Source of the DNA: Psilocybe cubensis
Lineage: Eukaryota
Reading direction: 5' to 3'
Assembly: GCA_017499595.2 (NCBI GenBank)
Contig: CM039005.1
Span: 3,100,001-3,164,000, forward strand
DNA: 64,000 bases
Below are positions 3,236-47,957 of the stretch, one piece after another (the first letter of the stretch is position 1; every line of letters begins with the position of its first letter). The position numbers and the translations under genes are program-made. A model generated the notes under the pieces. The model was not told the origin of the DNA. It did no database searches and saw nothing but the letters and a program-made list of their open reading frames with translations.

Positions 3236-3411
3236 GAGGGTTAATTAGGATTTTGTATTAGGAACACAGCAATCTACCACTTTATCACTTCCATTCCATC
3301 CATTTCGACTCTTTTTCTTTACAGGTTACTTCGCTTCGCTGGTCTATTCTCTAGGCAACTCTAGGCAACAATTCTAGGCGACACTTTCTGACTCTGTAAC
3401 TGGTTTACGCT

Positions 3412-6400
3412 ATGACTGATTCTGGCAATCCGCTTCCATCCTCTACTCCCACTATGGCTACTACCATCATCCAACGTACTCCTGTCGATATGCCTGTTCC
3501 TAAATCTAGTGCTGCTCCAAAATTCACTGGATCTTACATTGACGTCAAGAACTTCTTGGATCACTGCGACCGCATTTTTGATCAGTACAATGTCACTCTC
3601 GACGATGACAAAGTACGATACATGGTTCAATGCTGCAACCAAGAGAGCAGAGAAATCATTGAAGGTTTACCCAGCCACCATGCCAAGCAATGGGAACGAC
3701 TCAAGACTGATATGCTCAAGATCTTTGATCATGCTAGGACAACGCAGAAGTTCACGTTGAGTACTCTTCGTGCTTACGCTTTCCAACACTCCAATCTTTC
3801 TATGCGCTCTCTCGACGACTTCCGCGAGTATCAGAAGCAATACATTCACATCGCTGGTTGGCTTCTCAACAACAACAAGATATCCAAGACGGAATACAAT
3901 CAATACTTCTGGCTAGGAATCAATGAATCCCTCCGACCTGCGCTCGAAAGCAAGATCATGGTCTTTAATCCTCATATCGATCTCTCCTCACCTTTTTCCA
4001 TTGAAGACGTCACCAAGGCAGTTGAAATCATCTTTAAACGAGACCGCTTTGACGTTGGAATCTTTGACAATCCTTCTGCACGCCCCTTCACGTCTCTTAT
4101 TCCTCCAAAGGATTCGTATCCAGAGCGCTCATCAGTCTTTGACGAGATCAAGAAGTACTTACAGGAGATGTTTCCTAACATTGAGACACGCGATGCCCGT
4201 GAACGTCCATACAATCCCCCGGAAGAGACCAAGCGCATTTTTCAGGATCTAGACAAGGAAGAGAAGCAAGCGCACAAGGACGACAAAGTGGAGAACTTGA
4301 TCAAGCAGATGTCGAAGCTCACCATCCATGATTCTTCGTACGCCATTTATTATCTTCGCGCCATCAAGTTGGAACCCGCTCTTGCTAACATGCTCATTGC
4401 TCCGGCCATTATGAATCCAAGTGCACAGCCAGCTCAGCCAGTCCCAATCGCAAGTCAGTCAGCACCTCCAGCACCACGAGCACCACGTCAGTCCGCATCC
4501 GAGATCATCTGCTATGGTTGCCACCAACAAGGCCATGGAATCAACAACTGCCCGACGCTCATTGATCTTACAAACCGCAAGCTCATCTCCAGAGACAGTA
4601 GCAATCGAGTTGTCTTCCCTGATGGATCCCGCATTATTCGCCAGAATGGAGAGTCAATCGCACAAGCAGTCCTTCGTCAACAACAGCCTCCTCCTCCTCC
4701 TCCTCAAGTTGCTACCACAAGCATAGCCGTATCCGAAGCATATTATGGTCAGATGTTCAAGAACTACAGAGCCATGGTTGCAGAAGAAGAAGAGGACGAC
4801 ATTGGAACCTGGGATGGAGAAGACGAGTTTGAGTTTACGCTGGCAGGTCCTGGTAATCGAATCCCAACTGAAAAGCGAACACGTGCTGCACGCAAACAGG
4901 TCATGGACGCTGTGGTACCTCCGGAACCCGCGTATCTGAAAGGGAAGCGAGCGGAAATGAGTAAAGCTAAGGATTCTTCTCAGATCCCATCTATTCTTAA
5001 ACGTCCGGCTAACTCTGGATTGCCGAACAATGTGCCTAGCTCCACTTCCATTCAACCTGTCCCAATCCCGTCAATTAATCAACCTTCTGCCGAAATGAAT
5101 CCATCAATTCCTGTCAAACAAGCTCAACCCAATGTCCCGATTAGGGCAAATCCAACGGAACATCCCGAGACTGCCCAACGACACGAGGTTTTTGATCCGG
5201 CCGATGATGATCAAATCATGGAAGATGTCACTCCTAGTCTAGAACGAGGCAAATCAGTTACCAAGCCACGTGCAGCACCTCAGAAACGTGTCTCTGACAT
5301 ATCCCAAACTGTCGACACTATGGCCATTCTCAGACGATGCCTTAATCAACCCGTTAATGCGACGTTCGGCGAGCTACTTGGAGTTTCAAAGGACCTTAGG
5401 ACCCTTCTTATCAACAGCATCAAAGGCAAGACCCTTACTGTCGACGAATTCAAAGCTTCATTGGCAAACGGCAACTTAAAGCTTTCCGATAAGGAAGTTC
5501 TAGACATCATTCGCAGTGCCGAAAAGGACGTACCTGTTCAATACATGCACGAGACCAATTCAGTCGAATCCCTTCGCGCTCACGAGCCCCTTCTTCGAAT
5601 CACATTAATGTGTAATGGTCACGAACTCAATGCCTTGATTGACAGTGGATCTACGCAGAACATTCTAAGCGAACAGGCTTGGAAGAAGATTGTCAAGTTG
5701 CCGATGGACAGCCGGAATACTATTGTTATGGTCGATATTCATGGCGGCAAATCCCACATGCTTGGATTCGTTGGAAATGTTCAACTTGATATTGGTACAG
5801 TCAGGACGCGTGCTCATTGCTATGTATCCGACAAAGTCCAGTTTGATATACTCTTGGGACGTCCATGGACCCGTGACAACTATGTGGACATTCTAGAACG
5901 ACCCGAAGGGACCTTCATTGCCTTCTATGATGTCAAAGATCCTACACGTGAGCAGAAATTCCTTGTGACACCTGATACTCAGCACGACCGGCGTTACTTC
6001 ACGGATACCATTTACGACAAGACCCCCCACACAATGTTAGCACACAACGACCTCTCCTTAGCTAATCCGGATGCCGAAGAAGGTGAAATTGAAGAAGATC
6101 TAGAATCCGGTGAATTATTGGACGACCTTCGCTATCCATCACCTACCCCTTCTATGATCGAGTTATCTATCCTTACTAGGCAACAATCTCTGAATCGGGA
6201 CGAATCTGCTAACCCAAATGAGGACTTATCCACTTCACAAGATGCACCCTCTTTCTCTGACTCCAACTGCGAACATGACTCGACTCAGGACTCCTCTCAC
6301 GGTCTCTACGCTTCCGATTATGACTCAATGTATCAAGATGACTCGGGAACTTCTCAATTCAATGCGACAGCCCATTATGGTCATATTTCCACACCACCTT

Positions 6401-7293
6401 ACGATTCCACACATGAGGCCCCACAAATAGAACAGCCACCATCACCATCTGTCAATCCGTCCATCAAATCCCACACTTCAGACAATAACAACCCACATGA
6501 AGAAGAACCAGCTGACGACGATCCAGAAATGGAACAATTGAGCTCACCCGAAGTAGAAGCTATTCAATTCTCTTCTGACAATACTCACCTTACGGCTATG
6601 GGAATGCTCAACCCCCACTTGCGCTTTGAAGACTGGATTCTATACGACGCCACTTATTCTTCTCCTACTTGTGTTGTTTCTGACCGAACAGGAACGGCCT
6701 TTGTCCATTATGTTTATCCGCAGAGAGACAGCCATATAAACTTGACGACGACTCCAACTATTCTACACTTCAGTCGCACTGGTATCTCGTCTCAATCTAA
6801 CCACTCTGCTTCAGTCAGTGCCTATCCAATGGGCCAACGTCACTCAGCATCCTGGACTCATTTTATTCCCCAATCCATTCGCTCTCAAAACGCTTCTTCT
6901 ATTCCCCAACCTCATTCCCGAAATTCTGCTCTTCCAGAGACGCCTCTTTCGATTATGATTCACCAAGAAACACGTGTATCATCGACGGTCACCGCAAATG
7001 TAGACGAGCATCATCGAGGCCCAAAAGCTTTGGTACATCCTCTGCGAGTAGCCCACGACAGTCCGAAGGAGCCATTAAACGAGGATGAAGAAGAGCTACG
7101 AATCGCTCAAAATGGCAAAGAGGTCGACCACAATTCTTCCCTTTTACCTTTTCCAATAACCAGCACAATGCACGAATCGCGAGCTTCAAATATGGACGAT
7201 GGAAACGAATGGTACTATCAGTATGGAGAAGAAAGTCCCTTTTGTATTGACAACACGGAAGAGCATCCCTTGGACGCCAACACATTGTACTGA
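3412..7293 (+). CDS. gag: Gag-protease polyprotein (1293 aa)
   Basis: N-terminal gag-like region (APKFTG...), CCHC knuckle CYGCHQQGHGINNC, aspartic protease motifs ALIDSGS and DILLGRPW, long acidic Ser/Pro-rich tail. Confidence 0.93.
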   Translation: MTDSGNPLPSSTPTMATTIIQRTPVDMPVPKSSAAPKFTGSYIDVKNFLDHCDRIFDQYNVTLDDDKVRYMVQCCNQESREIIEGLPSHHAKQWERLKTDMLKIFDHARTTQKFTLSTLRAYAFQHSNLSMRSLDDFREYQKQYIHIAGWLLNNNKISKTEYNQYFWLGINESLRPALESKIMVFNPHIDLSSPFSIEDVTKAVEIIFKRDRFDVGIFDNPSARPFTSLIPPKDSYPERSSVFDEIKKYLQEMFPNIETRDARERPYNPPEETKRIFQDLDKEEKQAHKDDKVENLIKQMSKLTIHDSSYAIYYLRAIKLEPALANMLIAPAIMNPSAQPAQPVPIASQSAPPAPRAPRQSASEIICYGCHQQGHGINNCPTLIDLTNRKLISRDSSNRVVFPDGSRIIRQNGESIAQAVLRQQQPPPPPPQVATTSIAVSEAYYGQMFKNYRAMVAEEEEDDIGTWDGEDEFEFTLAGPGNRIPTEKRTRAARKQVMDAVVPPEPAYLKGKRAEMSKAKDSSQIPSILKRPANSGLPNNVPSSTSIQPVPIPSINQPSAEMNPSIPVKQAQPNVPIRANPTEHPETAQRHEVFDPADDDQIMEDVTPSLERGKSVTKPRAAPQKRVSDISQTVDTMAILRRCLNQPVNATFGELLGVSKDLRTLLINSIKGKTLTVDEFKASLANGNLKLSDKEVLDIIRSAEKDVPVQYMHETNSVESLRAHEPLLRITLMCNGHELNALIDSGSTQNILSEQAWKKIVKLPMDSRNTIVMVDIHGGKSHMLGFVGNVQLDIGTVRTRAHCYVSDKVQFDILLGRPWTRDNYVDILERPEGTFIAFYDVKDPTREQKFLVTPDTQHDRRYFTDTIYDKTPHTMLAHNDLSLANPDAEEGEIEEDLESGELLDDLRYPSPTPSMIELSILTRQQSLNRDESANPNEDLSTSQDAPSFSDSNCEHDSTQDSSHGLYASDYDSMYQDDSGTSQFNATAHYGHISTPPYDSTHEAPQIEQPPSPSVNPSIKSHTSDNNNPHEEEPADDDPEMEQLSSPEVEAIQFSSDNTHLTAMGMLNPHLRFEDWILYDATYSSPTCVVSDRTGTAFVHYVYPQRDSHINLTTTPTILHFSRTGISSQSNHSASVSAYPMGQRHSASWTHFIPQSIRSQNASSIPQPHSRNSALPETPLSIMIHQETRVSSTVTANVDEHHRGPKALVHPLRVAHDSPKEPLNEDEEELRIAQNGKEVDHNSSLLPFPITSTMHESRASNMDDGNEWYYQYGEESPFCIDNTEEHPLDANTLY

Positions 7294-7308
7294 CTATCTG
7301 GACGGTGC

Positions 7309-10300
7309 ATGGACATCAGCTTGCTTCCTCAACGCCCTCTCTTTGTTCTCCGATCCCCTCAATTTTTCTTTGTCACCTTTGCTGTTGCTGGTGTTTCTTC
7401 TTCCTCATTGTTATGCCTTTATTCCACCTCCCATTTTATTTCCACATTTTGCGTTTCTCTTTTCCATTTCATGGACACTTATGTAGATTTTTCATTTGTG
7501 CAACGAGTTCTTGAACGCCTCCACTTTTCTTTTATGCGCCTTTTCCTCACATTCACACTCTCAATGGCAACTCCACGCCATACAACCTTTTCCTTTACCT
7601 TTTATTTTCATTTTCTTTCCACTTTATCCATTTGTATGTACGTCGACCGAAAAGTCGTTAAACTAACCTTTATTTATTCCTCCCTTTTATTTATTTGTTC
7701 CACCCCCGCTTTACCACTTCAGTCCGCAAACAAATCCTCAGGTCACCTATTGCAGAGTTCTTGGAGAAACACGCGCAACCTCCCAAAGGAATGCTATACG
7801 GAATCTCTATCTCCAATATACACCACCATCATGCCTCCAATACACCTCGAACTCCTACAGAATCGGGAAGGGCTTCATCTTATCCACAAAGAGCGAAAAA
7901 TCAAGCTTACGGACAAGATAAGAAGGACGACCACTCCATTACCTCTGATGGGTCAAGACCTACAGAAATTTCGGATAGATCAAAGCATTTATGCAAGATC
8001 ATGGTCACTTAATTCAGATATTACTGCTAAACCCACCGTCAACCGAACTAATTCGGCAAGGTCGTCAAGCTCTCCTACAATTGGTTTTGTATTCACTGCC
8101 GCGTCAGGATCGACACTATCAACCTTCCGAGCCTCCATGAATCAATTCATATCACCTATTCTTTCCCCCTCTTCTGCCAATACAGCCTATAAACGAGTCG
8201 ATCGGAAAGTTAGACCTATAAATCGGGTTACTCCAGAATCGGCCAAAGTTATACGACGAATTCCTGTTGATCCCTTATTATCTCTCCCACCTCTCCCACT
8301 CCATCCCCCTGCCTTTACGCCAACAACCAGACTCACTCTTGAACGCATACAATCAATGAACATTAACGCCAACAAATTCCTATGGCCGGAAGAAGAAAAG
8401 CTTTTCCTTCATATTCTTAAACTCAATGAACGCTCACTCGCTTTTCATCAGTCCGAACGTGGAACATTTTCTGAAGAATACTTCTCTCCATACATCTTTC
8501 CTGTTGAGGATCACGAGCCCTGGGTAGTCCGAAATATTCCTATTCCACCCGGCATCAAGGATCAAGTTATCAGTCTCTTACGTGAAAAGATAGACGCTGG
8601 AGTATACGAACCAAGCCAAGCTCCGTATCGCTCTCCAATTTTCTGGGTCAAGAAGAAGACATCTGGTGCTATCCGTCTAGTTCATGATCTGCAGATTCTT
8701 AACTCTATTTCCTATCGCGACGCAGGAGTTCCTCCAGTTCTTGACGACTTTGTGGTTCCCTTTGCTGGTCATTCTATTTACACGGTCTTTGACTTATATT
8801 GGGGATATGACGCACGCAAAATCCATCCTATGAGCCGAGATCTTACCACATTCCAGTCGCCTATTGGACCTCTTCGACTTACTTCAATGCCTATGGGATA
8901 TACGAATGCAGTAGCGGAATTTCAAGCCTGTACAACTTTCATCCTTCGTGACGAGATCCCTCACGTAGCCAATGTCTTTATCGACGATGTTCCTATCAAA
9001 GGCCCTCCAACACAGTACTTAGACGAGGACGGCAATCCAGAAACACTTCCAGAAAATCCAGGAATACGACGATTTGTCTGGGAACACGCTCAAGATGTTC
9101 ATCGAGTTATGCACCGCATGGGATGTGCTGGTGCTACATTTTCTGGACCAAAGACTCAGCTCGCTCAGCCTAAAGTTCTTATCCTTGGACAGTTATGCAC
9201 TCCGGATGGACGACTACCCGATCAGAGTAAGATACAGAAAGTCACTGATTGGCCACGACCAAAGTCTGTTCACGACATCCGATCCTTTCTAGGTCTATGC
9301 GGAACAATGCGTGTTTGGATCAGAAATTACTCAGCCCTTGTCCGACCACTCACAGAACTCTATTGTAAGGACGAACCCTTTGTCTGGACTCAACAACGAG
9401 AAGACTCTTTCCAAACTCTCAAAGAAATCATTTCCAATCCTCCTGTTCTCACTTCTATTGACTATTCATCCGATCGCCCAGTTATTCTTGCCGTGGACAC
9501 TTCTCACATTGCTATTGGTATTATTCTCTATCAGCTTGACAAAGAAGGCATCCGACGACCTGTCCGCTATGGTTCTATCTCACTTAATCCACGAGAAGCA
9601 CGATACAGTCAGCCCAAGCTTGAGTTATATGGTCTTTTCCGTGCTCTTCGAGAATTCCGCCTCTATCTTATTGGAGTCAAGAACCTCTACGTTGAAGTCG
9701 ACGCCAAGTACATCAAAGGCATGCTCAATCAGCCTGACTTGCAGCCTAGTGCTAGTATGAATCGATGGATACAAGGCATTCTTCTCTTTGACTTCAAGCT
9801 CATCCATGTAAAGGCCGGTAATCATCGTGGACCTGATGGACTTTCAAGGCGACAACCAACTTCTGAAGAGTTAGAAGAACCTCAAGAAGACGATGACTGG
9901 CTCGACGATATTGCTCTTCTTAATACGGTCAAATTTTTCCCTACTTTTCTTTTTACTCCCTCTTCTATGCCATCGTATGACTCTATCTCGCTTCCTTCTT
10001 TTATTGCTTCTTCTTCTTCTCAAGAACGGACACTTCGACAAATTCTTCAATTTCTTACAGACCAAACTATACCCCCTTTTCCCAATTTGCAGTCCCGACG
10101 ACGATTCCTTGCTCGCGCTACTCAGTACTATCTCAAAGATGATCAACTCTATCGACGACGACAAGGAAGACCTCCACTCTTGGTTATTCTAGATCCAGAC
10201 AAGCGACGTCTCATTCTTACTCAAGCTCATGAAGAACTCGGACATCGAGGAGTATACGGTGTGTTTGGAGTTATTCGCATTCGGTTTTTCTGGCCATTTC

Positions 10301-11321
10301 TTTTTCAGGATATCAAGCATCATCTCGCTACTTGCCATGAATGTCAGATCAGATCCACCAAGAAAAGCGAAGTTCCTATCACTATCACAGCTACCCCAAC
10401 TATCTTCACTATCATCAATGTCGACGTCATGTACATGCCCAAGTCTGGACGCTTCCGATACGTAGTCCTAGCCCGAGACGACTTATCACGTGCACCTGAA
10501 GGACGTGCCCTCAAGTCTTTACGTTCCGAAGAGCTGGCCACTTTCTTTTGGGAAGAAGTCATATGCCGATATGGTGCTATTGCTATTGTACGCACGGACA
10601 ATGGAGTAGAAGTCTCTGGCGCTTTCAGTCTTTTGATGGAAAAGTACGGCATTCCTCAAGTTCGCATTTCTCCTTACAACTCTAAAGCCAATGGATCTAT
10701 TGAACGTGGTCACATTGACTTCCGTGAATCCATTCTCAAAGCTTGCGGCGACCGACCTCTAGACTGGCCACATCCCCTTTCTACGTCATGCATGGTGTTC
10801 ATCCTGTTCTTCCATTTGATCTCCTTGAAGCCACATTTCTAGTTGATGGATTCCGACAAGGAATGAGTTCCGAAGATCTCCTAGCTCTCCGTGTTCGACA
10901 ACTCATGGAACGAGATGAAGACTTAGCCAACATAGCCGACGTTCTGAAACAATCACGACTTCAATCCAAAGCTACTTTTGAACGACGATTTGCTCGACGT
11001 CTTCGACAAGAAAGCTTCAAGTTTGGTGATCTAGTCCTCGTTAGGAACAGTCAAGTCGAGAAGAAGATGAATCGCAAGCACAAGCCACGATACCTTGGAC
11101 CTTACGAAGTTGTACGACAGACACGAGGAGGATCATATGTGCTTAGAGAACTTAATGGTACACAACTGGCTCAAGGCGTAGCTGCTTTCCGACTTCTTCG
11201 CTATTTTCCACGAGACGGTTCAGTCATTCCTCGACCTCAGCTAGACCGGATGATCAGAGAACTTGGACACGAGAGTGAGGAAGATGAAGACACATGGAGC
11301 GACGATATGGACGATTTCTAA
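7309..11321 (+). CDS. pol: Pol (RT-RNase H-integrase), with a frame break at ~10770 after the integrase core
   Basis: RT motifs DLYWGY, MPMGYTN, FIDD; RNase H VDTS...YSQPKLEL...DGLSR; integrase HHCC (HEELGH...CHEC), D-D-E (DVMY, TDNG, IERGH); GPY/F module in the shifted frame 10743-11321; no chromodomain seen. True start uncertain. Confidence 0.93.
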
Positions 11322-11379: not shown

Positions 11380-13008
11380 TATCATACCCCAATCCTGATT
11401 GGAGATGAGATGTTCATTTTGGATCTACACACGACGCCCTCAACCCAAGCAGTCATTCTTTCCATAAGTCATCCACACATCTTATCTTATCAACACTTGT
11501 CACATGGAAGCCACGTTATTCCGGATCATGTCACTTCGTCAGATCATCAAGGCTATGCGACGGATCAGTCAACCATCAAACTGCATAGCTTTCTACACTG
11601 CCTTGCACAGCCGGACTGTCAACTCTATTTTTATCAATTCAATGGTCTTACTCAGCGTCAGGCTGCGGATTACTCATTCCAACTTATTTTTGGTTTGTCT
11701 TACTCATCCTTTTGTGTTTATTTATATCTTTTCTATTGTCTATTGCGCTTTTATTGTCTTTGTCTTACCAATCTTCTATGCTTTCTGACTCATCCTTGCT
11801 TCTTTTATCTAATCTGTATTACCATTCACCTTCGTCATACACTTCTTTCTTACTCATCCTATTCATTTCTTATCTGTCGTCGTGTCGATATTGACATGTC
11901 TTATTGTTCTTGCTTATTGTTACACTTGCGTAGCCTCATTCTTGACACTTTGTACAGTATATGACTCGGTTTTCAGTAGCTTAGATTGGTATTTCGTTCA
12001 CGTAGCTTTTAGTATAAAAGCTGTAGTAGAATTACACGAAATGATAGGAAAGTTACACCCAGTCCCCACTTTCTTCAAAGCAAGTCAATTTTCATCTAAG
12101 TCAAGTCAATTTCAAGTCAATCCACATCGATTCATTTCAATTCCAAGCTCAAGTTCAAGCCAAGCCCAAACCCAAGTCCAATTCAGTCATCAGTTCCACC
12201 CTCCGTCGAGACCAAGTTTACTTCCATTCATCCGAAGTCATCTCGCTTTCCATTAAGAGAGGATTTCATCCGAGACCAGTCATCCTCCTCATCCAACGCC
12301 TCTTCTTCTCAGCATTGAATATCCAACTTCTATCCAGACCTCCAGTACTTCCCTACTTCCTCTCCTCCATTCAATCCGTCACCGCTCCTACTCTTTCTAC
12401 ACCTTCCAACCATCGCCGTTAGGAGTGTATTCAAGACATCCTTTCCCTCCGTCAACTCATCTGGAGCGATTTCATTCGAGACAGACTTAGTCTTTCATCC
12501 TCGATTCAGTCAATACTCCTGCGACGTATAGCTTCATTCCAAGCTTCAGAAAGATTGTCAATTTAAAGACACTTTCACCATTCTTCAAGATTCAGCCCGT
12601 TAACGACATTCCGACTCCTAGTCATCTTCTTATCTCCCCTCGGAACGTTCCCCACTCACTTCAGACAACCCCTCTAAGATTCACATTTATTGATTTCTCA
12701 TACGCAATCTACGCATCTTCTTCACGCTTTCCATATACACCCGCCATCCAATTCCACGGTTCCATCCCATTTTCGGAAGGCTTATTTACTATCGTACCCA
12801 GACGACCCGGTTATCCTCTTCTTACTATTTCGCTTTCATTACCCTTCACAATCCACACCATCCTAATCTACTTAAATCCTAGGCAGAGTCCTCCCTTAAG
12901 AAACTTAGGAGAAGGTTTCGTCCTATCCAGTCTGGACCACTCTTTCCCTGGGGTTTGTGTTTGTTGGATTACATATAGTTTATAACCAATCACAAACTTC
13001 GATCTTCA
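11380..13008 (+). repeat. 3' LTR
   Basis: Direct repeat of 1588-3216, followed by the TSD ACGT. Confidence 0.97.
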
Positions 13009-36226: not shown

Positions 36227-38963
36227 GATTAGGATTATGTACTAGATTGCTGGATACATGTTACAAATGTCACATATCGATGAGATAGACTGACATTGAA
36301 GCCATCGATTCACTGGTAGAGTGCTTGGAAACGATGACATTGATTCGGAAAATGTATGTCCATGGGGACTTACCACAAAGATGGTTGCAAGAGCAGCACC
36401 ATACAGGCAACAATAGCGACCCCCACGGAGCACATATAGACGTAGAGGTTATCACTTGCCTCAAAGCCTTTGTTAAACGCTTCTCTCGTTGAATTGGGAT
36501 GAGTGATGAGGTAGCATTAGGAGCAGGAGCAGTATGGGAAGGCATGATTTTGACCATAGTTAATCTCCGGCGCCGATGCACCATCGGGTAGAATTACAAG
36601 TGGGTATCCAATCATTTGCCTTGAGGAACAGCGGGCGGATTAAGATGGACACTTGCAACTTCAAAGGCATGCGTAAGGCAGGATATGCCAATAGAAAAGT
36701 CGATGAAATATATGGGAGCACGGTGACCGTGGTATGAAGCAAATGCAAAGGACCGCGAACCGTGATGAGACAACAATATCCTAATGAGGTATGCCAAGGG
36801 GAAAGACACCGTAAATCAAACAAGGCAGAATTGTGAAAGGACAAGAAAAGAACGCAGAGGCGAACAGTGAAAAGTCGTCGCATGTAAAATGCTCACCACT
36901 TGTTTTGATTACCGTGAGTGCTAACCCATAACTTTATTTGCATCTCCTTCAGCGCACCATCGGTATATCATCAAAAAAGTTACAGCAATGGATAACAGAC
37001 CATCACACCCGCTGAGCGACCAAATGAAATGCTACATGTCCTAGCGAAGCTCGAATAGTTGATTTACGATGTAGAGGCCGAATTTCGAGGTAGCATCCAG
37101 CTGAAGTGAAGATATATAACCTATGACGTTGCTGCTGCATGGACGAAAAGAGCGAGCTAGTGCAGGGGAACCAAAGATCAGAGAGAGGCATGCCTAGGCA
37201 TGCAAAGCAAAACACTTACCGAGATGAACACCGGAAATTCAGTATTATTGCCCCTCCATTTCGCAACTTTTCTCTCATTCCAATTCCTGTGCCTTTCTGG
37301 CGTCAACTTTGGGCCAGTTATATGTATATATAACACAGGAAGAGAGAAATTTGAGAGAAACGTGCTGACTCGCGTCCCCGCCCTCGATTCCACAATCAAT
37401 TTGCTCGTCCCTAGACTCCCGATTCTTGTCCTCCTGCGCCGTTCAGATACTTATGGCATTTCCAAGCAACAAGAATCAGCATTGACAGATTTATCAAGAC
37501 CAGAGTTATTTTTGAGCTTTTGTTTCCTGTGAGTTATTCTTCTGCGGAGAAGCGATGGCGGCTGACGTCGGAGAAAAAGAACAACGTGGCGCGTCTGTCA
37601 GTGTTTGTCCTTGCTGTCCTCACAGCATTTGAAACTCCGCTTCGGCACAGCCGGACGTGCTCGGCGTGCAATAACCACCATCAGAAGACACAACTTTTTC
37701 TGGTAAGCTACGCCATCTCTTCCTCCCAAACTCAGAACGAATACCTTTCTTTTATATATAAAATGACTTCTGGGAGGACCGCCCTGATTAATATGGACAT
37801 TTGGACTAAACGGGCGCAGGATTATGGGAGAACAATGTGTGTCGCACATCATGGTAGCTGTTGTCAGTATCCCCCTTTCATTCGAAGCAGTCTAGCTTAG
37901 CTTATGGAACTCGCCTAATTATCAAGGACTGGGCATTTATTATGCACAAATTTTTGACCAGCCATGTTCAAGCTTGTAAGTAGATGCAACGATTACATTC
38001 CAAAATAACTACGCTCTGAAAAGAAGATGCATGACTTTATCACGAGGGGCTGAAGAATTATTGACGACCCTATTCCTTCGACTCAAATTGACCACATCAG
38101 ATGTCTGACCCTGAAGAAGGACGCAGAATTTTTTCAATGTCCAACATCACACTTGTTGACAATTTCATTAATATTAAAGGCCTGTGAGCGAACCACCTTC
38201 CGGGAACTTGGAGGCACAGCTGCAAAATCACTTTGTACCTGACTTCGAATTTTTATTCTGGTCAGCGGAATGGGTAAAACCAATGATGGTGTTGCGACAG
38301 AAGCCGTCAGTGCTGCAATTAGCGATCATGATGCAATCGATCCGAAGAACCCTTCATTTTGATAACAAGCATGTCAGGTATAACTTCTAAAAGTATCTGC
38401 AGAAATGCACCGTGTTCCATAGAAGCCTTGTACCGCTTGCAGAGTCGGAGAATAACTGCTCCCGAAATGTATACTTGGAAACGTATGTAATACTTCATTA
38501 CTGATAGCTATGAAGTTAAGTGTTCATTTTTTGGGGTATTGTGTAAATTTTTTCTGAACAGAGGGTCGATGTTATACAAGGAGTTAAGAAACAACACGGT
38601 TGAATGACTACCTGTGAGTGAATGGTGATTCTAAATAATATAAATGACTGTCTTCTAGGCCGTACTCGGCTAAAATGATTCTCTCACGGATGTGGGAGGA
38701 CCCTAGGTATCAGTAGCGTGTGCTGTCCAGGCGCAAGGGCTTCAAACTAGTATTCTGTCTTGTTCGGCTCGGGTCATATAATTTCCAACTTCATAAAAAA
38801 AACATTGAACGTCTGAAACATATAAAATCCAAACATCGTTATAATATACGTACCCGTCCAACACTTGTGCTTCGTAAATCCTGGTAAGCCTTTATCATCA
38901 CAGTGAATACTTTCCCGAGGTTCACCTTCATCACAATATAATTTAACACAGCACGCACATTCG

Positions 38964-39674
38964 ATGTTCAAATCTTTCACTCTCGCGTCACTTGCCTTGG
39001 CAGCACTGTACTGGGTATCCCCAGTTGTAGGTCATGGATATGTCACCGTACCCCCCAGTCGTCAAGCCCGTTGTCACAACGGAGAAGTTACCCGCTGCGG
39101 TGGCGTCGAGTACGAGCCACAGAGCGTCGAAGCTTTAGCAGGTTCATTTGCCTGCAATGGGGACGGTCATCGTTTCCATGAGCTTAACGACAACTCCTTG
39201 TTTGAAAACCTTTTCTTCACCGTCCCAGAAGGAACCGAATCACTCCCGTTTACCTGGGTGTTACCCGCGCCGCACAGGACGCTTGTTTGGGAGTACTTCG
39301 TCATCACACAGGAAAACGCGTTGTTGCTTTCAGACCCAGGTCACGGCGCGGTACCTCCGCAAAGCTTCACCCATTTAGTGCCATTGAATGGGATTAAAGG
39401 GAGACAGACAGTCCTTGCGCGATGGACCATTGCCGATACCCCGAACGCTTTCTATGCCTGTGTCGATCTCCTGATCGAGGGTTCTGAGACGGCCACTGCT
39501 GTTGCTGGAGCAGTCGCCACACCGGTTCCCATTGCGATGCCTTACGGGTTCCATAACTCGCTCGGACACGAGAATTCCGCCAACCGGTCGGAGTCTGCCA
39601 CCGCTGAAACGAGTCGCGCTGGTTCCTACAAAGCCATCCAAAACTTACTGTATGTACAAGGACCTCAATCCTGA
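38964..39674 (+). CDS. Secreted AA10 (CBM33/chitin-binding type 4) lytic polysaccharide monooxygenase, intronless
   Basis: 23-aa signal peptide then HGYVTVPPSRQARC, YEPQSVE, FTW...APH...WEYF, ARWTIADTPNAFYACVD: full His1/His/Phe copper-site pattern; low-complexity C-terminal tail. Confidence 0.93.
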   Translation: MFKSFTLASLALAALYWVSPVVGHGYVTVPPSRQARCHNGEVTRCGGVEYEPQSVEALAGSFACNGDGHRFHELNDNSLFENLFFTVPEGTESLPFTWVLPAPHRTLVWEYFVITQENALLLSDPGHGAVPPQSFTHLVPLNGIKGRQTVLARWTIADTPNAFYACVDLLIEGSETATAVAGAVATPVPIAMPYGFHNSLGHENSANRSESATAETSRAGSYKAIQNLLYVQGPQS

Positions 39675-40383
39675 GGCATTTGTTCCTGTCTGGCAAGCAC
39701 TTCATTCGTCATTTCCATCGACTGATTATTTGTATAAGTTGGTCGTTAAATTTCATAGTCCCGGTTAGTCAGTAACAGAAAAATATAGCGAAAGTTTGTA
39801 GATTTGAAATAGGAGATTCCAAAACTAATTTTAGAGGAATTAGGGATGGTATGTTTGATAAAGACTGGCCTCGATTCCTATTCCAGAGAATATGAGGATA
39901 ACCGGCAGCATGCCTGTGACATTGAAGCGGAGTTTACAATCTGGGAAACTCGCTAGCAATATCACCTGAAACTAATATTAAAGAAGAAGGATACCCAGAC
40001 GCTAACTCAGTGATGATGCTGATTGCAGTGATCACACGCTTGTTTGATGCGGATGGATTCCCGTTCGACAACACCTTTCCAAATAATATGATCACCCCCC
40101 AGAATCAGTTGTTCACCTTATTTTGAGCGTCGCTACAAACACAGTCAGAAATAAGAGGTATGAGATATAGATATACACTCTTCCGCGAGGTTTTCATCAA
40201 AGAAGTGGTACAGACTTCTTCTGCATTTTTCATGTTTTGATCAGGCTTTTCTTGATGAAACAAGATGCCAACTGTGGGACAGATTGTAGTATTCCCCGGA
40301 TCATGCGGGTATATCTGCCTTAGATGCATATAAAGCAGAGTATAAACTGATGATGCCACGTACATTAACACCAGCAAGACAAC

Positions 40384-41682
40384 ATGTCTAACCTTATTAA
40401 TGTAACTGTCATCCTACCCCCCGACAGTAATTTACCAGACATCGAAAAACTAATAGAAATGCAACACACAATGGAATCCATCAATCTCAATGCAATAATG
40501 ATGTTTAGTATTCTTACAGGTAAGTTGTTCCTTTTCCTAAAGATGTTATAATAAATCAATATTTGCAGGCGCATACACCTTGGTCTATGTGTACACTGTG
40601 TGTCTGTACAGTCCGTGGATGATGTTATACTTTTACAATTCTTATTTAACTCGGAATCAATAGTGTTGAAGCAATCAAGCAACAAAAACAATTTCCTTGT
40701 AATTTATCTTACATCTATCCTCTACATATTTACACTTGTTATGTTTCTCCTTCAATGGGTAGACTTCGTATCCCCATCGGTGTATGGGGTATCTCTTGAA
40801 GTGTTTCACGATATGCTGATTTTTATAAATATTTTAATTGCGGATATATTGCTGGTAAGCTCGTACTACATTGTGGATGCTTGACCACTTGGCTTACTGG
40901 GATATACATGCAGATATGGAGATGCTATCATGTCTGGGGGCGGTCAATACGATCAACAATCTTGCCGTTGATTTTTTTTGTTGCTGAATGTGGTGCGTTG
41001 GACGATTTGATAACTAATATTCTGTGATTACTCGATTTGTGGCGCCATGTAGGCCTGAACATTGGACGTTGCTTTTTCTTGATCAAGTTCAGTCAATTCG
41101 AGGTTTCAAACAGTGCCACAGTGATTATGAACGACATCACGGGAGCTCTGATTCTCACTTCTGTCGCAACAACGGCGTCAGCCTCATTCATGATCGGCTA
41201 CAGAATACACATTGTATCGAAGGAACATAGCTTGTCTTCCTCTTCTAGCAGGACCTTCACCCATATCATTTTCATAGTCCTCGAGTCTGCAGCAATGTAC
41301 TCTATATTTCCCCTGGAGGTAGCCATCCAGAATGTTGTCCCAGGAGCCGACAATCCAGACAACATATTTTTTAAAATGGGGAGCTTTTTTGAGCAGTTTA
41401 TGCACATTGTTACGGTGAGAGCTACGCATTTCATTGTAATAAATATATTGCCTAGAGGGTAATTAATATATGATGCAAATTCAGGGAATAGCTCCGACAA
41501 TAATGGTTGCCAGAGTTCTTATGGAACAGAACAAAGCGGAAAATAATGTGTCTTATGGTTCAGACTTTGGGCCTCCTCTGGATTCATCTGGTATCCAACC
41601 CAATTCTTTCATTGATGCAGCGGTTTCCCAAGAAAATAGGGAGTCCCAAGCTCAGGAATCTCAATCTGTCAAGCGGATGTAG
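40384..41682 (+). CDS. Multi-pass (7TM-like) membrane protein, copy 2
   Basis: Same intron positions and motifs (IADILL-IWRCYHVW, IGYRI, IVLESAAMYS, GIAPTIMVARV) as copy 1. Confidence 0.8.
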
Positions 41683-44476
41683 AAAGTTACGGAATATTAT
41701 GTACTAGACCATAGAAGCTTCCGTTCAGCTCTCAATGCTGTTATGTATTTCATTGTTTGAGTAGCTGCCATTGCTGAGTTTAAGTGGCGGTATTGAACTC
41801 AATGGAAGATGTTGAGGACTGTGGATCACAGGTAAATGGTACCTCAGCGAATGGTGGCAGTGTTAGCGTTCCCATAGTATTGAGAATACTGATTGCAAAA
41901 CCTGTCTGGACGATTATCTCACGATTCACATCCTCTCAACCGACTTGACAGCCTGGTGAGTGTTTTACCAACCAGAATTTTAGATCAAGACGGGAATTGA
42001 CCATATTCTGGACGCCAATTGATTGGAAACTCCCTTGGAAAGATTTGTACTTCCCAATGATATCATCTATGCTGAGCGGTCAAAGATACTGGGGAGGCAC
42101 ATCCAGGAGCAGAGAAACTAGTGAGCAACCGTGAAATTGATATTTCCCTCACCTTAAGCTGCACAGTAACGTTAGTGTTAATAATATAAAGTATCTGTAT
42201 CTTAAAACTCCGAATGTCGAGAGACCTTCAAAGATTTCCATGCTGAAACCGGCATTAGTAACCTTCTATCATTTACAATGTAATTGTATGAGTTATATAT
42301 CACGCAACATACAAAACACAATATTTCGATAAATTTGCTGAGTATTGAGCTGTACAGTTCAACATTGAATATATGCGTGTGTTTAGCTTTCAACGGCTGC
42401 GTTGAGGGGTCAATTCAAGTTGACCTCCAACAACTTGACGACTCGGAGCCCCTGAATCGTGTTCCCGGTTGTTCCCGGCCTATCGAATTCATCTGCAAAC
42501 AACAAGGCCAAATAAAGGCCGCTTCACTTCTAGTCTTCTACCACCACCTGCTTGTCCGATAGCGTACAAAGTCGACGTTCAAACTGAACAAGAGGCATTC
42601 AGTACCAGAGAAACGACTTCTCGTGACTTAGAGGAAAAACCAGTGCTTTGGAGGTCATGAGTTGGACGCAGGGAGTGACCAGAGGGGTTGTGTGGATTTA
42701 GTACAAGGGTGCAAAAGTAAGTCATTTGAGATCTTCTACTAGCGTTTGACCTGCCATATACCACATCTAGCACTGTTACAACCAATTCCCATCTCTTTTA
42801 TTAACACCCACCACTGAAAAGCCTTGCCTGTGGTTCTTTGCTTTCGACAGCGGTGATTCTGAATTCCGCAATCCTAGACACACCGACACTTTACCTGTTG
42901 GATTTCCCAATTCCTGCGACTCTATGCTAAACACTATGTTCCCCACTTCTGTCCTGCATGATCGGCAACCCGTTTCTCCCCAGCTTGGTGGTCAATGTAG
43001 ACCATATCCCACCATGACCAAGGAACATGCGGACGTCGGTAAGAAGCAGTCGGGGGTGAATTCCTTGCTCGCCCCAACGCGTTTGTGTTCTTCTGTTCAT
43101 CCATGAACAGTTGTTCCACGGTACCTTGAACAAAACGCCAGAGTCCAACCTACGCGTTCAAGATGCCAAATGCAGTTCAAAAAATGACGTGTCGCAGATA
43201 ATTGGCATTTTCATTGCGTAACAGCTTGATGCTACGGTGCACGCAGTTTCAGACGTCTGGGATATCATACTGGTATCAAAATGTATCTGCATTTCTCTGC
43301 TCGTGATATCGCTGCTATCTCTGGATTTTGGATATAATCAATCAGATATATGCGCGTTTAAGGCTTGTACGCGGAATTGTCTACTCTGGTATTGTCTTCG
43401 TATCCTGTGTGCATTCTGTGGGCTTCCTTGGAATATCAACATGTGCTCTTCATACCACCCACAGTTGTACTACGGCTCCCTAGAGGTCTTCTACAACGGC
43501 TACTTGTACCCAACACGTCCTCCATAACAGCACGGACACACGCTGACACCATTCTGTCCCTCTCTCCCCACTCCCGTTCCGCATTTCAACAATGCCAACA
43601 ATAGCGAGTGGGAACTCATACAACACGCTCAGAGCACCGTTTACGCATTCCTGTTGCTGCAAGCAGCTTGTGAGGGCGGCATGCGGTTGAGGAAGCAAAA
43701 GCGTGCGTGCAAATCTGGAACTGAGTGAATGTTTGAGATTGAGGTACTTTCTGGCATGCCAGTGAGGTCGTGTTCGTGTTGAAGGAACGGCGGGATATCT
43801 TTGTTACATGTTTTCTTGCCTGACCAAATGAACGGGTGTGTATGTATGCTGTGGTCAGAAATGTAAATAACAATTACTGCGAGCTCCCCTAACAGCGCGC
43901 GGGAAGACCGCTCGTGTCTGCTTATCTGGAGTTGCCTTCCAATGTGGATCGACATCACCGCAGCTGTAGTGAATCACACATGGATGGTATGACATTTCCC
44001 CTTTTATTCTTCTTCCCTACGAATGGTTTAATGGCAATACTAGGACATTAAGGTCCGACTAATAGGTACACCTGATGTAGGGACATCGACCTCGATGTAA
44101 CCAGTGGCTGTATTATAATTAGACCTAAGAAAAATGACACATCAACCAATCACATTTCGTGTGATGGAAATAGGACATGAGGTGGATGGATGACAGCTCG
44201 TTTCTCTCGGCACGTCAGGGAACTGGTGCGGCCATAGGCGTAGACAATGGTCGATTGTGTGTGTTCATGAGAAGCCATAGTATTTTATTGCCTAAAGGGT
44301 TGAAACGTCATTTTATACACGAGGAGTCGACGAGTCTTCCTGCACTAGCTTAATAAGGGCTGAAAACATGAGAAATACCCCTTCACATCGAATTAAACGA
44401 TTCCTTTCTTCCTTTCCACATTGTCACCCCCAAGCCCTGCCCCACAGAGCACAATCCATCTCCAGACTCCAGTAAT

Positions 44477-46780: not shown

Positions 46781-47957
46781 TCAATGAGAACCGACATTTG
46801 AGCTTTCGCAAGTCTCTTCAGTTCTTATCTGCGCCATGGCCACTCTAGCGACCACAATTGTCGGGGCTATTCCCTAAATATCCATAAAATTTTGACTATT
46901 ATCAAGCAAATATATCGGAAAGAAAATATAAAATTCTCACCGTAACAAAGTACATATATTGCTGAGTATAGTCATCCAGTCGTTTTGAGACATTTAACGG
47001 GTCGCTGTTTGATGGCAGCACATTCAAAAGAGCCTCTACCAGGAGGAATACAGAGTATATAGCGGCTGACTCCATGATTATGAAAAGGATGTGTTTGAAT
47101 GTCTGTCTGGAAGAGGATGACACATCACGTTCCTTTGATACGGTGTGTATCCGGTGGCCTATGAGGAATGAGGTTAAAGCAGTTGTTGCAACGGAAACAA
47201 ACAGCAGTGCTCCGGCAATGCTGTTGTCGGTGGTTGCCACAGCGTGTGAAAGGTTGACTTTGCCAAACTTAATTAAGAAAAAGGAATGGCTAAGGTATAG
47301 GGCTACGCAAAATGAGAGAATTGTTAATCACAGAGAGGCCATGTTCTAACCATCCACCGCACCAAATTCAATAACAAAAAGAGTCAACGGGACGATTATT
47401 GATTGTATTGACCGTGCCCAGACGTGATAACATCTCCATATCTGTTTGAATAATGCCGTCAATTGCCTGGTCAAGCCCCTATCAATTATCTGTATTGAGC
47501 GCTCACCAACAAAATATCCGCAACAAGAATTCTCATAAAAATAACCATTTCATTTCCCACTCCCATTACGCCGGTGGGAACTACAGGTAGCCAAGCAATA
47601 CACTGCGCAATTATCCATTGAAGCCAAAAGGTATAGCACGACGATAGGAAGAGGATAGATATCAGAAATAGCACAAAGAGTTTGTTTTTTCCGGCTGGTT
47701 TCTTTGATACTTTGAAAGCAAAACTTGGTAGACATTGAGAGATTTTACCACATTCACGCACTGTAGAGAAACATCGTGCTTCCGTAGACCAAAGTGTATG
47801 TGCCTAAGATAAGGGTCCAATGACAATCAATGCATGTATAAAAGACGATATGCATACCCATGAGAAGGTTAAACATCATTGCAGAGTTTACACTGGCGGA
47901 AAAGATTTTCTTTTCAAAGTCGGGTGTGATAATAATGTCATCGAACTGATGAGACAT
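46781..47957 (-). CDS. Multi-pass (7TM-like) membrane protein, copy 3
   Basis: Motifs VNSAMMFNLLMG, VADILL-IWRCYHVW, IGHRI, IIMESAAIYS, GIAPTIVVARV; closest to copy 2. Confidence 0.78.

Follow-up and report, generated by a model that had tools for sequence, protein, structure and literature searches.

A predicted chitin-active AA10 lytic polysaccharide monooxygenase of Psilocybe cubensis, probably derived from an old actinomycete gene transfer

Lytic polysaccharide monooxygenases (LPMOs) play a key part in chitin and cellulose turnover; one of their families, AA10, is taught as 'bacterial'. JdLPMO10A from Jonesia denitrificans (PDB entry 5aa7) is listed with Cu(I), the residues His32, His109 and Phe164, activity on alpha- and beta-chitin, and C1 oxidation (table in PMC5094447). 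In fungi, putative AA10 genes were reported in 2015 in 2 of 79 genomes, those of Galerina marginata and Ustilago maydis, and horizontal gene transfer was proposed (PMC4424831, available text). The Ustilago enzyme, UmAA10, was described in 2023 as a C1-oxidising, chitin-active LPMO that acts on Ustilago wall chitin and boosts an endogenous GH18 chitinase; it has a disordered C-terminal region, transfer was again suggested, and the accompanying tree held nine fungal sequences, all from Ustilaginomycetes (PMC10617569, available text). According to the available parts of two further articles, AA10 was missing in the Agaricomycetes examined (PMC10282164, 2023), and an AA10 cluster enriched in Mycena was possibly acquired horizontally (PMC11293592, 2024). 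In this study we focus on an AA10 gene of the mushroom Psilocybe cubensis, which lies in a 64,000-nucleotide stretch of contig CM039005.1 (hereafter the window), and we compare it with these systems.

The gene product is an AA10 LPMO, as its family, its fold and its intact catalytic residues show. We consider it likely that it is a secreted, copper-dependent chitin LPMO, and that the gene goes back to one old transfer of an actinomycete AA10-CBM5 gene, after which a new tail took the place of CBM5 and the gene was duplicated. An initial annotation, made from the letters of the window, had described an intronless, bacterial-type AA10 gene acquired from bacteria. The acquisition itself is supported, since the gene is nested among actinomycete sequences, has no intron and belongs to a family that is rare in fungi; what does not stand is a recent or private event, the gene being part of a clade-wide and ancient set. 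That annotation had also called AA10 mainly bacterial and viral. Rarity in fungi agrees with the 2 of 79 genomes mentioned above (PMC4424831, available text), whereas absence from fungi as a kind does not hold, with Ustilaginomycetes, Galerina and Mycena already in print.

The translation contains every motif that had been pointed out in it, namely the histidine predicted to become residue 1 of the mature chain, APH at residues 102-104, NAFY at 161-164 and YEPQSVE at 50-56. The leader MFKSFTLASLALAALYWVSPVVG, followed by HGY, places a hydrophobic stretch of 23 residues directly before His24, as judged by hydropathy. Alignments by tblastn of the full-length fungal homologues P0002, P0003 and P0005 run unbroken to the stop codon, and the C-terminus ..YVQGPQS is kept in the homologues of Psilocybe, Galerina and Pholiota. 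A GTATGT a few codons before the stop was considered as a splice donor and rejected, the C-terminus encoded downstream of it being conserved and the tblastn alignments unbroken; the gene is thus intronless and complete, a single open reading frame (ORF), as first described. The coding sequence has a G+C content of 54% (55% at third codon positions, GC3); the 2-kb flanks have 43% and 40%, and the window as a whole 44.5%. The C-terminal tail had been given as about 65 residues of low complexity: the length proved right (64 residues), but the tail has been conserved within the fungal clade described below and is not simply low-complexity sequence.

At the level of the family, residues 24-169 cover the whole Pfam profile LPMO_10 (PF03067, positions 1-183 of 183) with an E-value of 1.5e-15 and 58.8 bits, the gathering cut-off being 23. 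The best PDB chain by sequence is 5aa7_A (E 1e-30), followed by CBP21 (2bem, 1e-17) and 5ftz (1e-16), with further matches to 5wsz, 5l2v, 5lw4, 4a02 and GbpA. In the alignments His24 falls on residue 1 of the mature chains of 5aa7, 2bem and 5ftz, and in the numbering used for JdLPMO10A, His24, His104 and Phe163 correspond to His32, His109 and Phe164. An AlphaFold2 model from the single sequence reached a predicted local distance difference test (pLDDT) score of 39 and was discarded; it was replaced by a model from an alignment of 96 sequences with a mean pLDDT of 81, in which 10-residue blocks average 93-98 between residues 21 and 170, and 40-57 in the tail. Foldseek against the PDB again returned 5aa7_A as the top match (E 3.4e-16, TMt 0.95, root-mean-square deviation 1.3 Å, 42% identity). 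Moreover, the top 18 matches are all AA10 structures, while the cellulose-type AA10s 4oy7 and 5uiz and the viral fusolins rank far lower. The closest characterised relatives are chitin-active and YEPQSVE is kept, so the protein most likely belongs to the chitin-active, C1-oxidising subgroup of the CBP21 and JdLPMO10A type. The motif is common to the window protein, CBP21 and JdLPMO10A.

Relatives were collected with a word-indexed protein search, which returned 925 proteins at E <= 0.001 among 5,447 candidates, the best 120 being listed. The top named matches come from Psilocybe cubensis (78% and 67% identity), Pholiota conissans (62%) and Galerina marginata (57%); they are joined by two proteins of Athelia sp., many of Mycena spp. 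and one of Hypholoma sublateritium. Taken together, the named fungal orthologues and paralogues among these best 120 of 925 are 46-78% identical to the window protein and come from six Agaricomycetidae genera. Counted as named proteins, P. cubensis has three paralogues besides the window gene, the third of them being P0121/P0270; its contig and that of P0002 are both 2,562,776 nt long and presumably identical. After the fungal matches, and still among the best 120, come about 60 Actinoplanes-type proteins with 47-53% identity and a CBM5 domain (PF02839), and one chytrid protein (Borealophlyctis) with 54% identity. An exhaustive search of representatives gave 320 clusters at E <= 0.001, and the bacterial neighbours by cluster, which are Kineosporiaceae, Streptosporangium, Nocardia, Aldersonia, Oerskovia and Glycomyces, are all actinomycetes. 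A search for relatives of 414-2000 residues found none, which is weak evidence.

For the phylogeny, 227 of 269 proteins covered the domain and 42 failed this coverage filter. FastTree on the 227 rows revealed a clade of 55 Agaricomycete rows with a support of 100. A more careful tree was computed with IQ-TREE (LG+C20+F+G4 PMSF, 150 columns, 105 rows); most of the 122 rows left out were near-duplicates of the Actinoplanes type or distant representatives, and they included four rows of the FastTree fungal clade: P0154 (long branch, garbled), P0043 (long branch), P0028 (near-identical to P0021) and P0129 (partial domain). In this tree the Agaricomycete clade comprises 51 rows, 25 of them named, with 100/100 support and a stem of 0.48; its named rows belong to Psilocybe, Galerina, Pholiota, Hypholoma, Mycena and Athelia. 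The window gene groups with two P. cubensis paralogues (99/93), then with the third (99/91), inside an Agaricineae-type subclade of Psilocybe, Hypholoma, Pholiota and Galerina (100/98). The whole fungal clade is nested in a clade of 93 rows (100/97), in which the other named rows are all actinomycetes except for the chytrid row P0097, and it is united at 82/91 with two unnamed rows, one row from Kineosporiaceae and an Actinoplanes-type clade. The maximum-likelihood phylogeny that the initial annotation had proposed thus places the window gene in a fully supported fungal clade nested among actinomycetes. The fungal AA10 clade that had been named as the alternative to a transfer was found in part: it spans at least six Agaricomycetidae genera, yet it lies within actinomycete diversity.

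The fungal clade carries features of its own. Two insertions, one of 4 residues before the TW strand and one of 3 residues after EYF, are present in all of its rows and absent from the bacterial rows. The tail, which occupies the position of the linker and CBM5 in the bacterial proteins, shows conservation in the proteins of Psilocybe, Galerina, Pholiota, Mycena and Athelia; the alignment consensus is TATAVAGAAATQ.PIGMP ... N.S.SAN ... NM.LQN.FV..KGSS, and several shorter forms retain an AAA.Q.PIG core. A hidden Markov model (HMM) of the tail matches 28 of the 51 clade rows, 9 of which were outside its training rows, and no named bacterial row. When residues 173-236 were searched by themselves, only the window protein and P0002 were recovered, and an Atlas search gave no usable match. 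The hydropathy of the tail (last 11-residue windows +0.35 and -0.57, maximum 1.44) gives no suggestion of a glycosylphosphatidylinositol anchor or transmembrane segment. In the catalytic domain, over 49 fungal-clade rows, the first histidine is kept in 48, the second in 47 and the phenylalanine in 47, and the four cysteines are kept in 49, 49, 49 and 48. This conservation and the mostly synonymous single-nucleotide polymorphisms (SNPs) described below support the view that the AA10s of the clade are kept under purifying selection.

These data suggest how the protein could work and where it came from. That the window protein is secreted, binds copper and oxidises chitin at C1 is, like its biological substrate, our inference. 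Cleavage of the signal peptide would make His24 residue 1, and its amino group and side chain would, with His104, hold one copper ion with Phe163 below. A flat face formed by Tyr50, Glu51, Gln53, Ser54 and Glu56 would bind crystalline chitin, and with a reductant and O2 or H2O2 the glycosidic C1 would be oxidised and the crystal opened for GH18 chitinases. As for its history, a single old transfer would have brought an AA10-CBM5 gene of a Micromonosporaceae-like, Actinoplanes-type actinomycete into the ancestor or an early member of the Agaricomycetidae group. There, the conserved disordered tail would have replaced CBM5 and the base composition would have drifted towards that of the host, and later duplications would account for the three named paralogues in P. 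cubensis and the many copies in Mycena. The analysis supports this order of events, in which the gene was transferred long ago from a Micromonosporaceae-like actinomycete and was then ameliorated and duplicated.

Several observations weigh against this proposal. The substrate and regioselectivity put forward for the Agaricomycete clade rest on homology at 42% identity. Not every copy of the clade need be an enzyme: the P. cubensis paralogue P0003 has Asn instead of the first histidine, and at the second histidine one of the Mycena sp. proteins P0050 and P0051 has Ala and the other a gap, so that these three are possible non-catalytic derivatives. The support of the immediate sister group (82/91) is only moderate, which makes a Micromonosporaceae-like donor a best guess among actinomycetes. 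Within the clade, the rows of Mycena and Athelia form a weakly supported basal grade and the branch order does not match the species tree; a single transfer followed by losses is therefore indistinguishable from later spread from fungus to fungus. Furthermore, two sequences of the Agaricineae-type subclade (100/98), P0123 of Umezawaea sp. and the metagenomic P0045, form a pair (98/98) within the fungi, which does not fit easily with transfer in one direction only.

This pair deserves a closer look. P0123 is 150 residues long and is encoded on an 11.8-Mb contig (locus L162, G078:C1:9570613-9571062), with a G+C content of 62.9% and a GC3 of 81.5%, close to its flanks. The two fungal-type insertions occur in both proteins, which have no signal peptide and lack the two histidines of the His-brace and all four cysteines. 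Among 301 genomes sampled from its bacterial family, the unpublished genome G285 included, a single one has a gene of the P0123 type (99% identity); the second-best match reaches 43%. Placing the pair outside the fungi was not rejected by the approximately unbiased (AU) test (p 0.169); the pair could be a return from fungus to bacterium or a relic of the donor lineage. The chytrid row P0097 (Borealophlyctis nickersoniae) lies inside the Actinoplanes clade (88/92) and has neither the fungal insertions nor the tail, and it is either assembly contamination or a separate, more recent transfer. A bolder reading would make the Agaricomycete AA10s a third independent fungal domestication, besides the Ustilago type and the chytrid, in which CBM5 was swapped for the tail, the gene radiated and was then passed back to Umezawaea, where it would survive as a leaderless LPMO fold put to a non-oxidative use inside the cell; we regard this as speculative and rather unlikely.

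Turning to the substrate, our best guess is exogenous chitin that dead fungal matter and the remains of arthropods supply in litter or dung, and which the enzyme may attack for nutrition or in competition. The main alternative, which we judge possible but the less likely of the two, is that the enzyme remodels the chitin of the fungus's own wall, in hyphae or fruit bodies, as proposed for UmAA10, which cleaves Ustilago wall chitin and boosts GH18 (PMC10617569, available text). The loss of CBM5 and the disordered tail would fit tethering to the wall or regulation. UmAA10, on the other hand, falls in a clade that was probably acquired separately. The AA10 carriers named here are saprotrophs of litter, wood, dung or termite nests, which we count against a role in the own wall. 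Moreover, AA10 is missing from most fruit-body-forming Agaricomycetes in the available part of PMC10282164, so a general developmental requirement is not indicated.

It is improbable that the window protein is a non-catalytic chitin-binding or neofunctionalised protein, lectin-like or effector-like. Such a fate would be in line with the clade members that have lost one histidine and with the Umezawaea-type proteins, in which the whole His-brace is gone, and two MOA-like lectin genes lie 4.7-13 kb away. The window copy, by contrast, retains His24, His104, Phe163, Glu56, Ala102 and both disulfide pairs, and 47-49 of 49 rows do likewise at these positions, except for Ala102, which is found in 37 of 49.

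Ancient vertical inheritance would require that early fungi had AA10 and that nearly all lineages later lost it. Its occurrence in Agaricomycetidae, Ustilaginomycotina and one chytrid is what such a history would leave behind, but the three groups do not form one clade. The Ustilaginomycotina rows P0176 and P0153 (Thecaphora frezii and Violaceomyces palustris), which had first been taken as outgroup, form a clade of their own (100/98) that groups with GbpA-type and Paenibacillus rows (99/91), across a 100/97 branch from the mushrooms. Forcing them into one clade with the Agaricomycete rows costs 51.5 log-likelihood units, with an AU p of 0.0305, a value that is near 0.05 and concerns a group named post hoc. 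The chytrid row, as noted, sits in the Actinoplanes clade, all named neighbours of the mushroom clade are actinomycetes, and the gene has no introns. We therefore hold vertical inheritance to be very improbable. The mushroom AA10s and UmAA10 are probably separate acquisitions; the UmAA10 sequence itself is absent from the tree, where Thecaphora and Violaceomyces represent Ustilaginomycotina.

A recent transfer private to this species is more improbable still. It could be read from an intronless gene of a family that is rare in fungi, and from a coding sequence whose G+C content of 54% lies above that of the neighbouring coding ORFs (43-47%). Against this stand the orthologues and paralogues in six genera, with identities down to 46% and three named paralogues in P. 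cubensis itself, the fungal stem of 0.48, and the distance to bacteria. A scan of one genome per species over 185,579 bacterial and archaeal species gave 580 relatives, the best 80 of which are all actinomycetes with at most 52% identity. Ranks 1-17 are taken by nine genera, among them Actinoplanes, Paractinoplanes, Hamadaea, Asanoa, Dactylosporangium, Spirilliplanes and Catellatospora; membership in the Micromonosporaceae was checked for Actinoplanes, Hamadaea and Spirilliplanes, and we take the remaining genera to belong there as well. The base composition, too, differs from that of the bacterial loci, which have a G+C content of about 70%, and in the metagenomes of the Joint Genome Institute (JGI) 77 of the best 80 loci are at or above 60% overall, compared with a GC3 of 55% for the window gene. 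Since the clade is common to at least six genera, the bacterial identity does not exceed 52% and the G+C content is ameliorated, the transfer is old and not private to this genome. Three metagenomic loci (L001, L002 and L073) show the same contrast as the window, with a locus G+C content of 44-45% and AA10 ORF pieces at 54-54.5%, and carry continuous, intron-free AA10 copies. The copy of L001, which comes from a sibling data set, is intact, that of L002 has an in-frame stop and that of L073 a frameshift, which indicates that the latter two are pseudogenised paralogues in a fungus.

The AA10 gene is physically integrated in the fungal chromosome. In run X1 a contig of 10,383 nt covers all of positions 36500-42000 with 0 differences, although this run is possibly the source of the DNA analysed here. 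In run X7, from a different study, a contig of 6,005 nt crosses 37407-42000, including the gene and both flanks, with 9 differences. Run X12 stems from a further study, and its raw Illumina reads give an even depth of about 23-52x per bin over 36500-42000 when both mates are added up, without a change where the gene begins or ends; in all, the stretch 37500-41000 is represented in sequencing runs of four studies. At several positions an alternative base occurs in about 27-65% of the X12 reads, which fits a nuclear locus of a dikaryon or diploid. Four of these SNP positions lie in the coding sequence, and the X7 contig shows three of the four; one changes the protein (E117D), and the others are synonymous. 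Furthermore, 11 reads of X12 follow the window on the right-hand side of 39381 and depart from it leftward into a sequence encoding TPPAIVTHPV, which is that of the paralogue P0002, so the sequenced organism has both genes. The initial annotation had allowed for a chimeric or contaminant junction; none was seen, the reads being even across both flanks and the X7 contig spanning them. Contamination is excluded, and the chance that the gene is an assembly artefact or bacterial contaminant, for which only the bacterial family name speaks, is negligible given the reads and contigs just described, a composition unlike that of bacterial loci and flanking genes that are fungal. At 37407-37417, 1.5 kb upstream of the gene, loose ends occur in X7 and X12 and the X7 contig breaks, which points to a heterozygous or strain-specific structural variant.

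Table 1 Coordinates of the AA10 gene, its parts and the other features of the window.
Feature	Position	Strand	Basis or remark
AA10 LPMO coding sequence, complete, intronless	38964..39674	+	236 codons + TGA stop; homologue tblastn continuous
Signal peptide, residues 1-23 (MFK + hydrophobic core + SPVVG)	38964..39032	+	hydropathy; predicted cleavage exposes His24
AA10 catalytic domain, residues 24-172 (149 aa)	39033..39479	+	Pfam PF03067, AlphaFold2 model, Foldseek
His24 codon CAT, predicted N-terminal histidine of His-brace	39033..39035	+	aligns to residue 1 of mature crystal chains
YEPQSVE, residues 50-56, surface/second-sphere motif common to CBP21 and JdLPMO10A	39111..39131	+	alignments, conservation
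His104 codon CAC, second His-brace histidine, within APH	39273..39275	+	aligned to 'aph' His of 5aa7
Phe163 codon TTC, AA10-type axial Phe within NAFY	39450..39452	+	aligned to 'nafy' of 5aa7
C-terminal extension, residues 173-236 (64 aa), predicted disordered	39480..39671	+	alignment, tail HMM, pLDDT 40-57; kept in the Agaricomycete clade as TATAVAGA.AT..PI..P ... QN.L..QG..S
Ty3/gypsy gag-aspartyl protease ORF	3400-7290	+	Pfam
Ty3/gypsy reverse transcriptase-RNaseH-integrase ORF	7294-10839	+	Pfam
Long terminal repeat direct repeats, 100% identical over >=300 nt, spacing 9792	1588-1887, 11380-11679		repeat comparison
First MOA-like lectin gene, RicinB_lectin_2	26024-26674	+	Pfam
Second MOA-like lectin gene, RicinB_lectin_2	33171-33614	+	Pfam
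Second MOA-like lectin gene, Agglutinin_C	33993-34286	+	Pfam
Spliced, apparently expressed neighbour gene	36273-37450	-	X14 contigs; no Pfam/NCBIfam family for ORF pieces
63-nt GT..AG intron of neighbour gene	37157-37219	-	X14 contig joint 37156->37220; CT..AC on +

The surroundings of the gene (Table 1) are fungal. A Pfam scan of 143 stop-to-stop ORFs of at least 90 aa across the window matched a Ty3/gypsy element, the MOA-like lectin ORFs, AA10 and nothing else, with no family within 4.6 kb on either side of AA10. Among 40 ORFs between 30 and 48 kb, NCBIfam matched only AA10 and no second bacterial-type gene, so there is no sign of a co-transferred block. The Ty3/gypsy insertion is probably young, given its identical direct repeats. 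The lectin genes both lie upstream of AA10, and the second appears to be split by an intron, its Agglutinin_C domain being in a separate ORF; ricin-B and MOA-like lectins are fungal defence proteins. The spliced neighbour on the minus strand sits 1.7 kb upstream of AA10 and is covered in run X14, taken by guess to be RNA, while AA10 is not, which speaks neither for nor against AA10 expression. Language-model features alone liken the ORF at 34812-35741 to F-box-like hypothetical proteins. Downstream of AA10, inverted repeats of 108 nt at 40903-41010 and 47345-47452, 81% complementary, enclose 6.3 kb, and a DNA transposon may have them as its terminal repeats.

Our work does not overturn the current understanding. 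The idea of horizontal transfer is already known, for the Galerina orthologue since 2015 and for the Mycena cluster since 2024. Literature searches, with supplements outside their scope, found no paper on Psilocybe AA10s, none that deals with the tail of the clade or sets the clade apart from the Ustilago type, and no biochemical report for any member of the Agaricomycete AA10 clade. Modestly new are a probable origin independent of UmAA10, the conserved tail that replaces CBM5, Micromonosporaceae-like nearest relatives and a leaderless bacterial derivative. What the analysis suggests is that common mushrooms of litter, wood and dung keep and multiply an actinomycete-derived LPMO, whose chitin activity is predicted by homology. 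This lineage, probably distinct from the sole studied fungal AA10, offers a second natural experiment on how fungi use a bacterial LPMO, and its small, eukaryote-adapted domains of 149 aa could be of use for enzyme work.

Among known systems, JdLPMO10A is the closest in structure, sharing a minimal AA10 domain (about 142-149 aa), a copper site of the His/His/Phe type and YEPQSVE. It forms the N-terminal module of a multi-domain bacterial protein, named 'chitinase' in the PDB, whereas the window protein stands alone and has the two small insertions (4 aa and 3 aa) and the disordered tail. The parent protein of JdLPMO10A, Jden_1381, presumably has the architecture AA10-CBM5-GH18. Tma12, an AA10 of the fern Tectaria macrodonta (6if7), is an AA10 of a eukaryote for which a bacterial origin is assumed, and it is reportedly insecticidal; it is only distantly related to the window protein (sequence E 0.067, Foldseek E 9e-07, 20% identity). 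UmAA10, the only characterised fungal AA10, resembles the window protein in being fungal and built of a catalytic domain and a disordered C-terminal region; it is chitin-active with C1 oxidation and suspected of a transferred origin (PMC10617569, available text). It probably belongs to another lineage, and the tail HMM matched no row outside the Agaricomycete-type set. The nearest bacterial relatives are the AA10-CBM5 proteins of Actinoplanes and other Micromonosporaceae (for example P0054 and P0103), which have a Pro/Thr linker and CBM5 (PF02839) in place of the tail, lack the fungal insertions and reside in high-GC genomes. Finally, the AA10s of Galerina marginata and Mycena (P0005 and P0017-P0051) share with the window protein the clade, the domain plan and the tail, at 46-59% identity.

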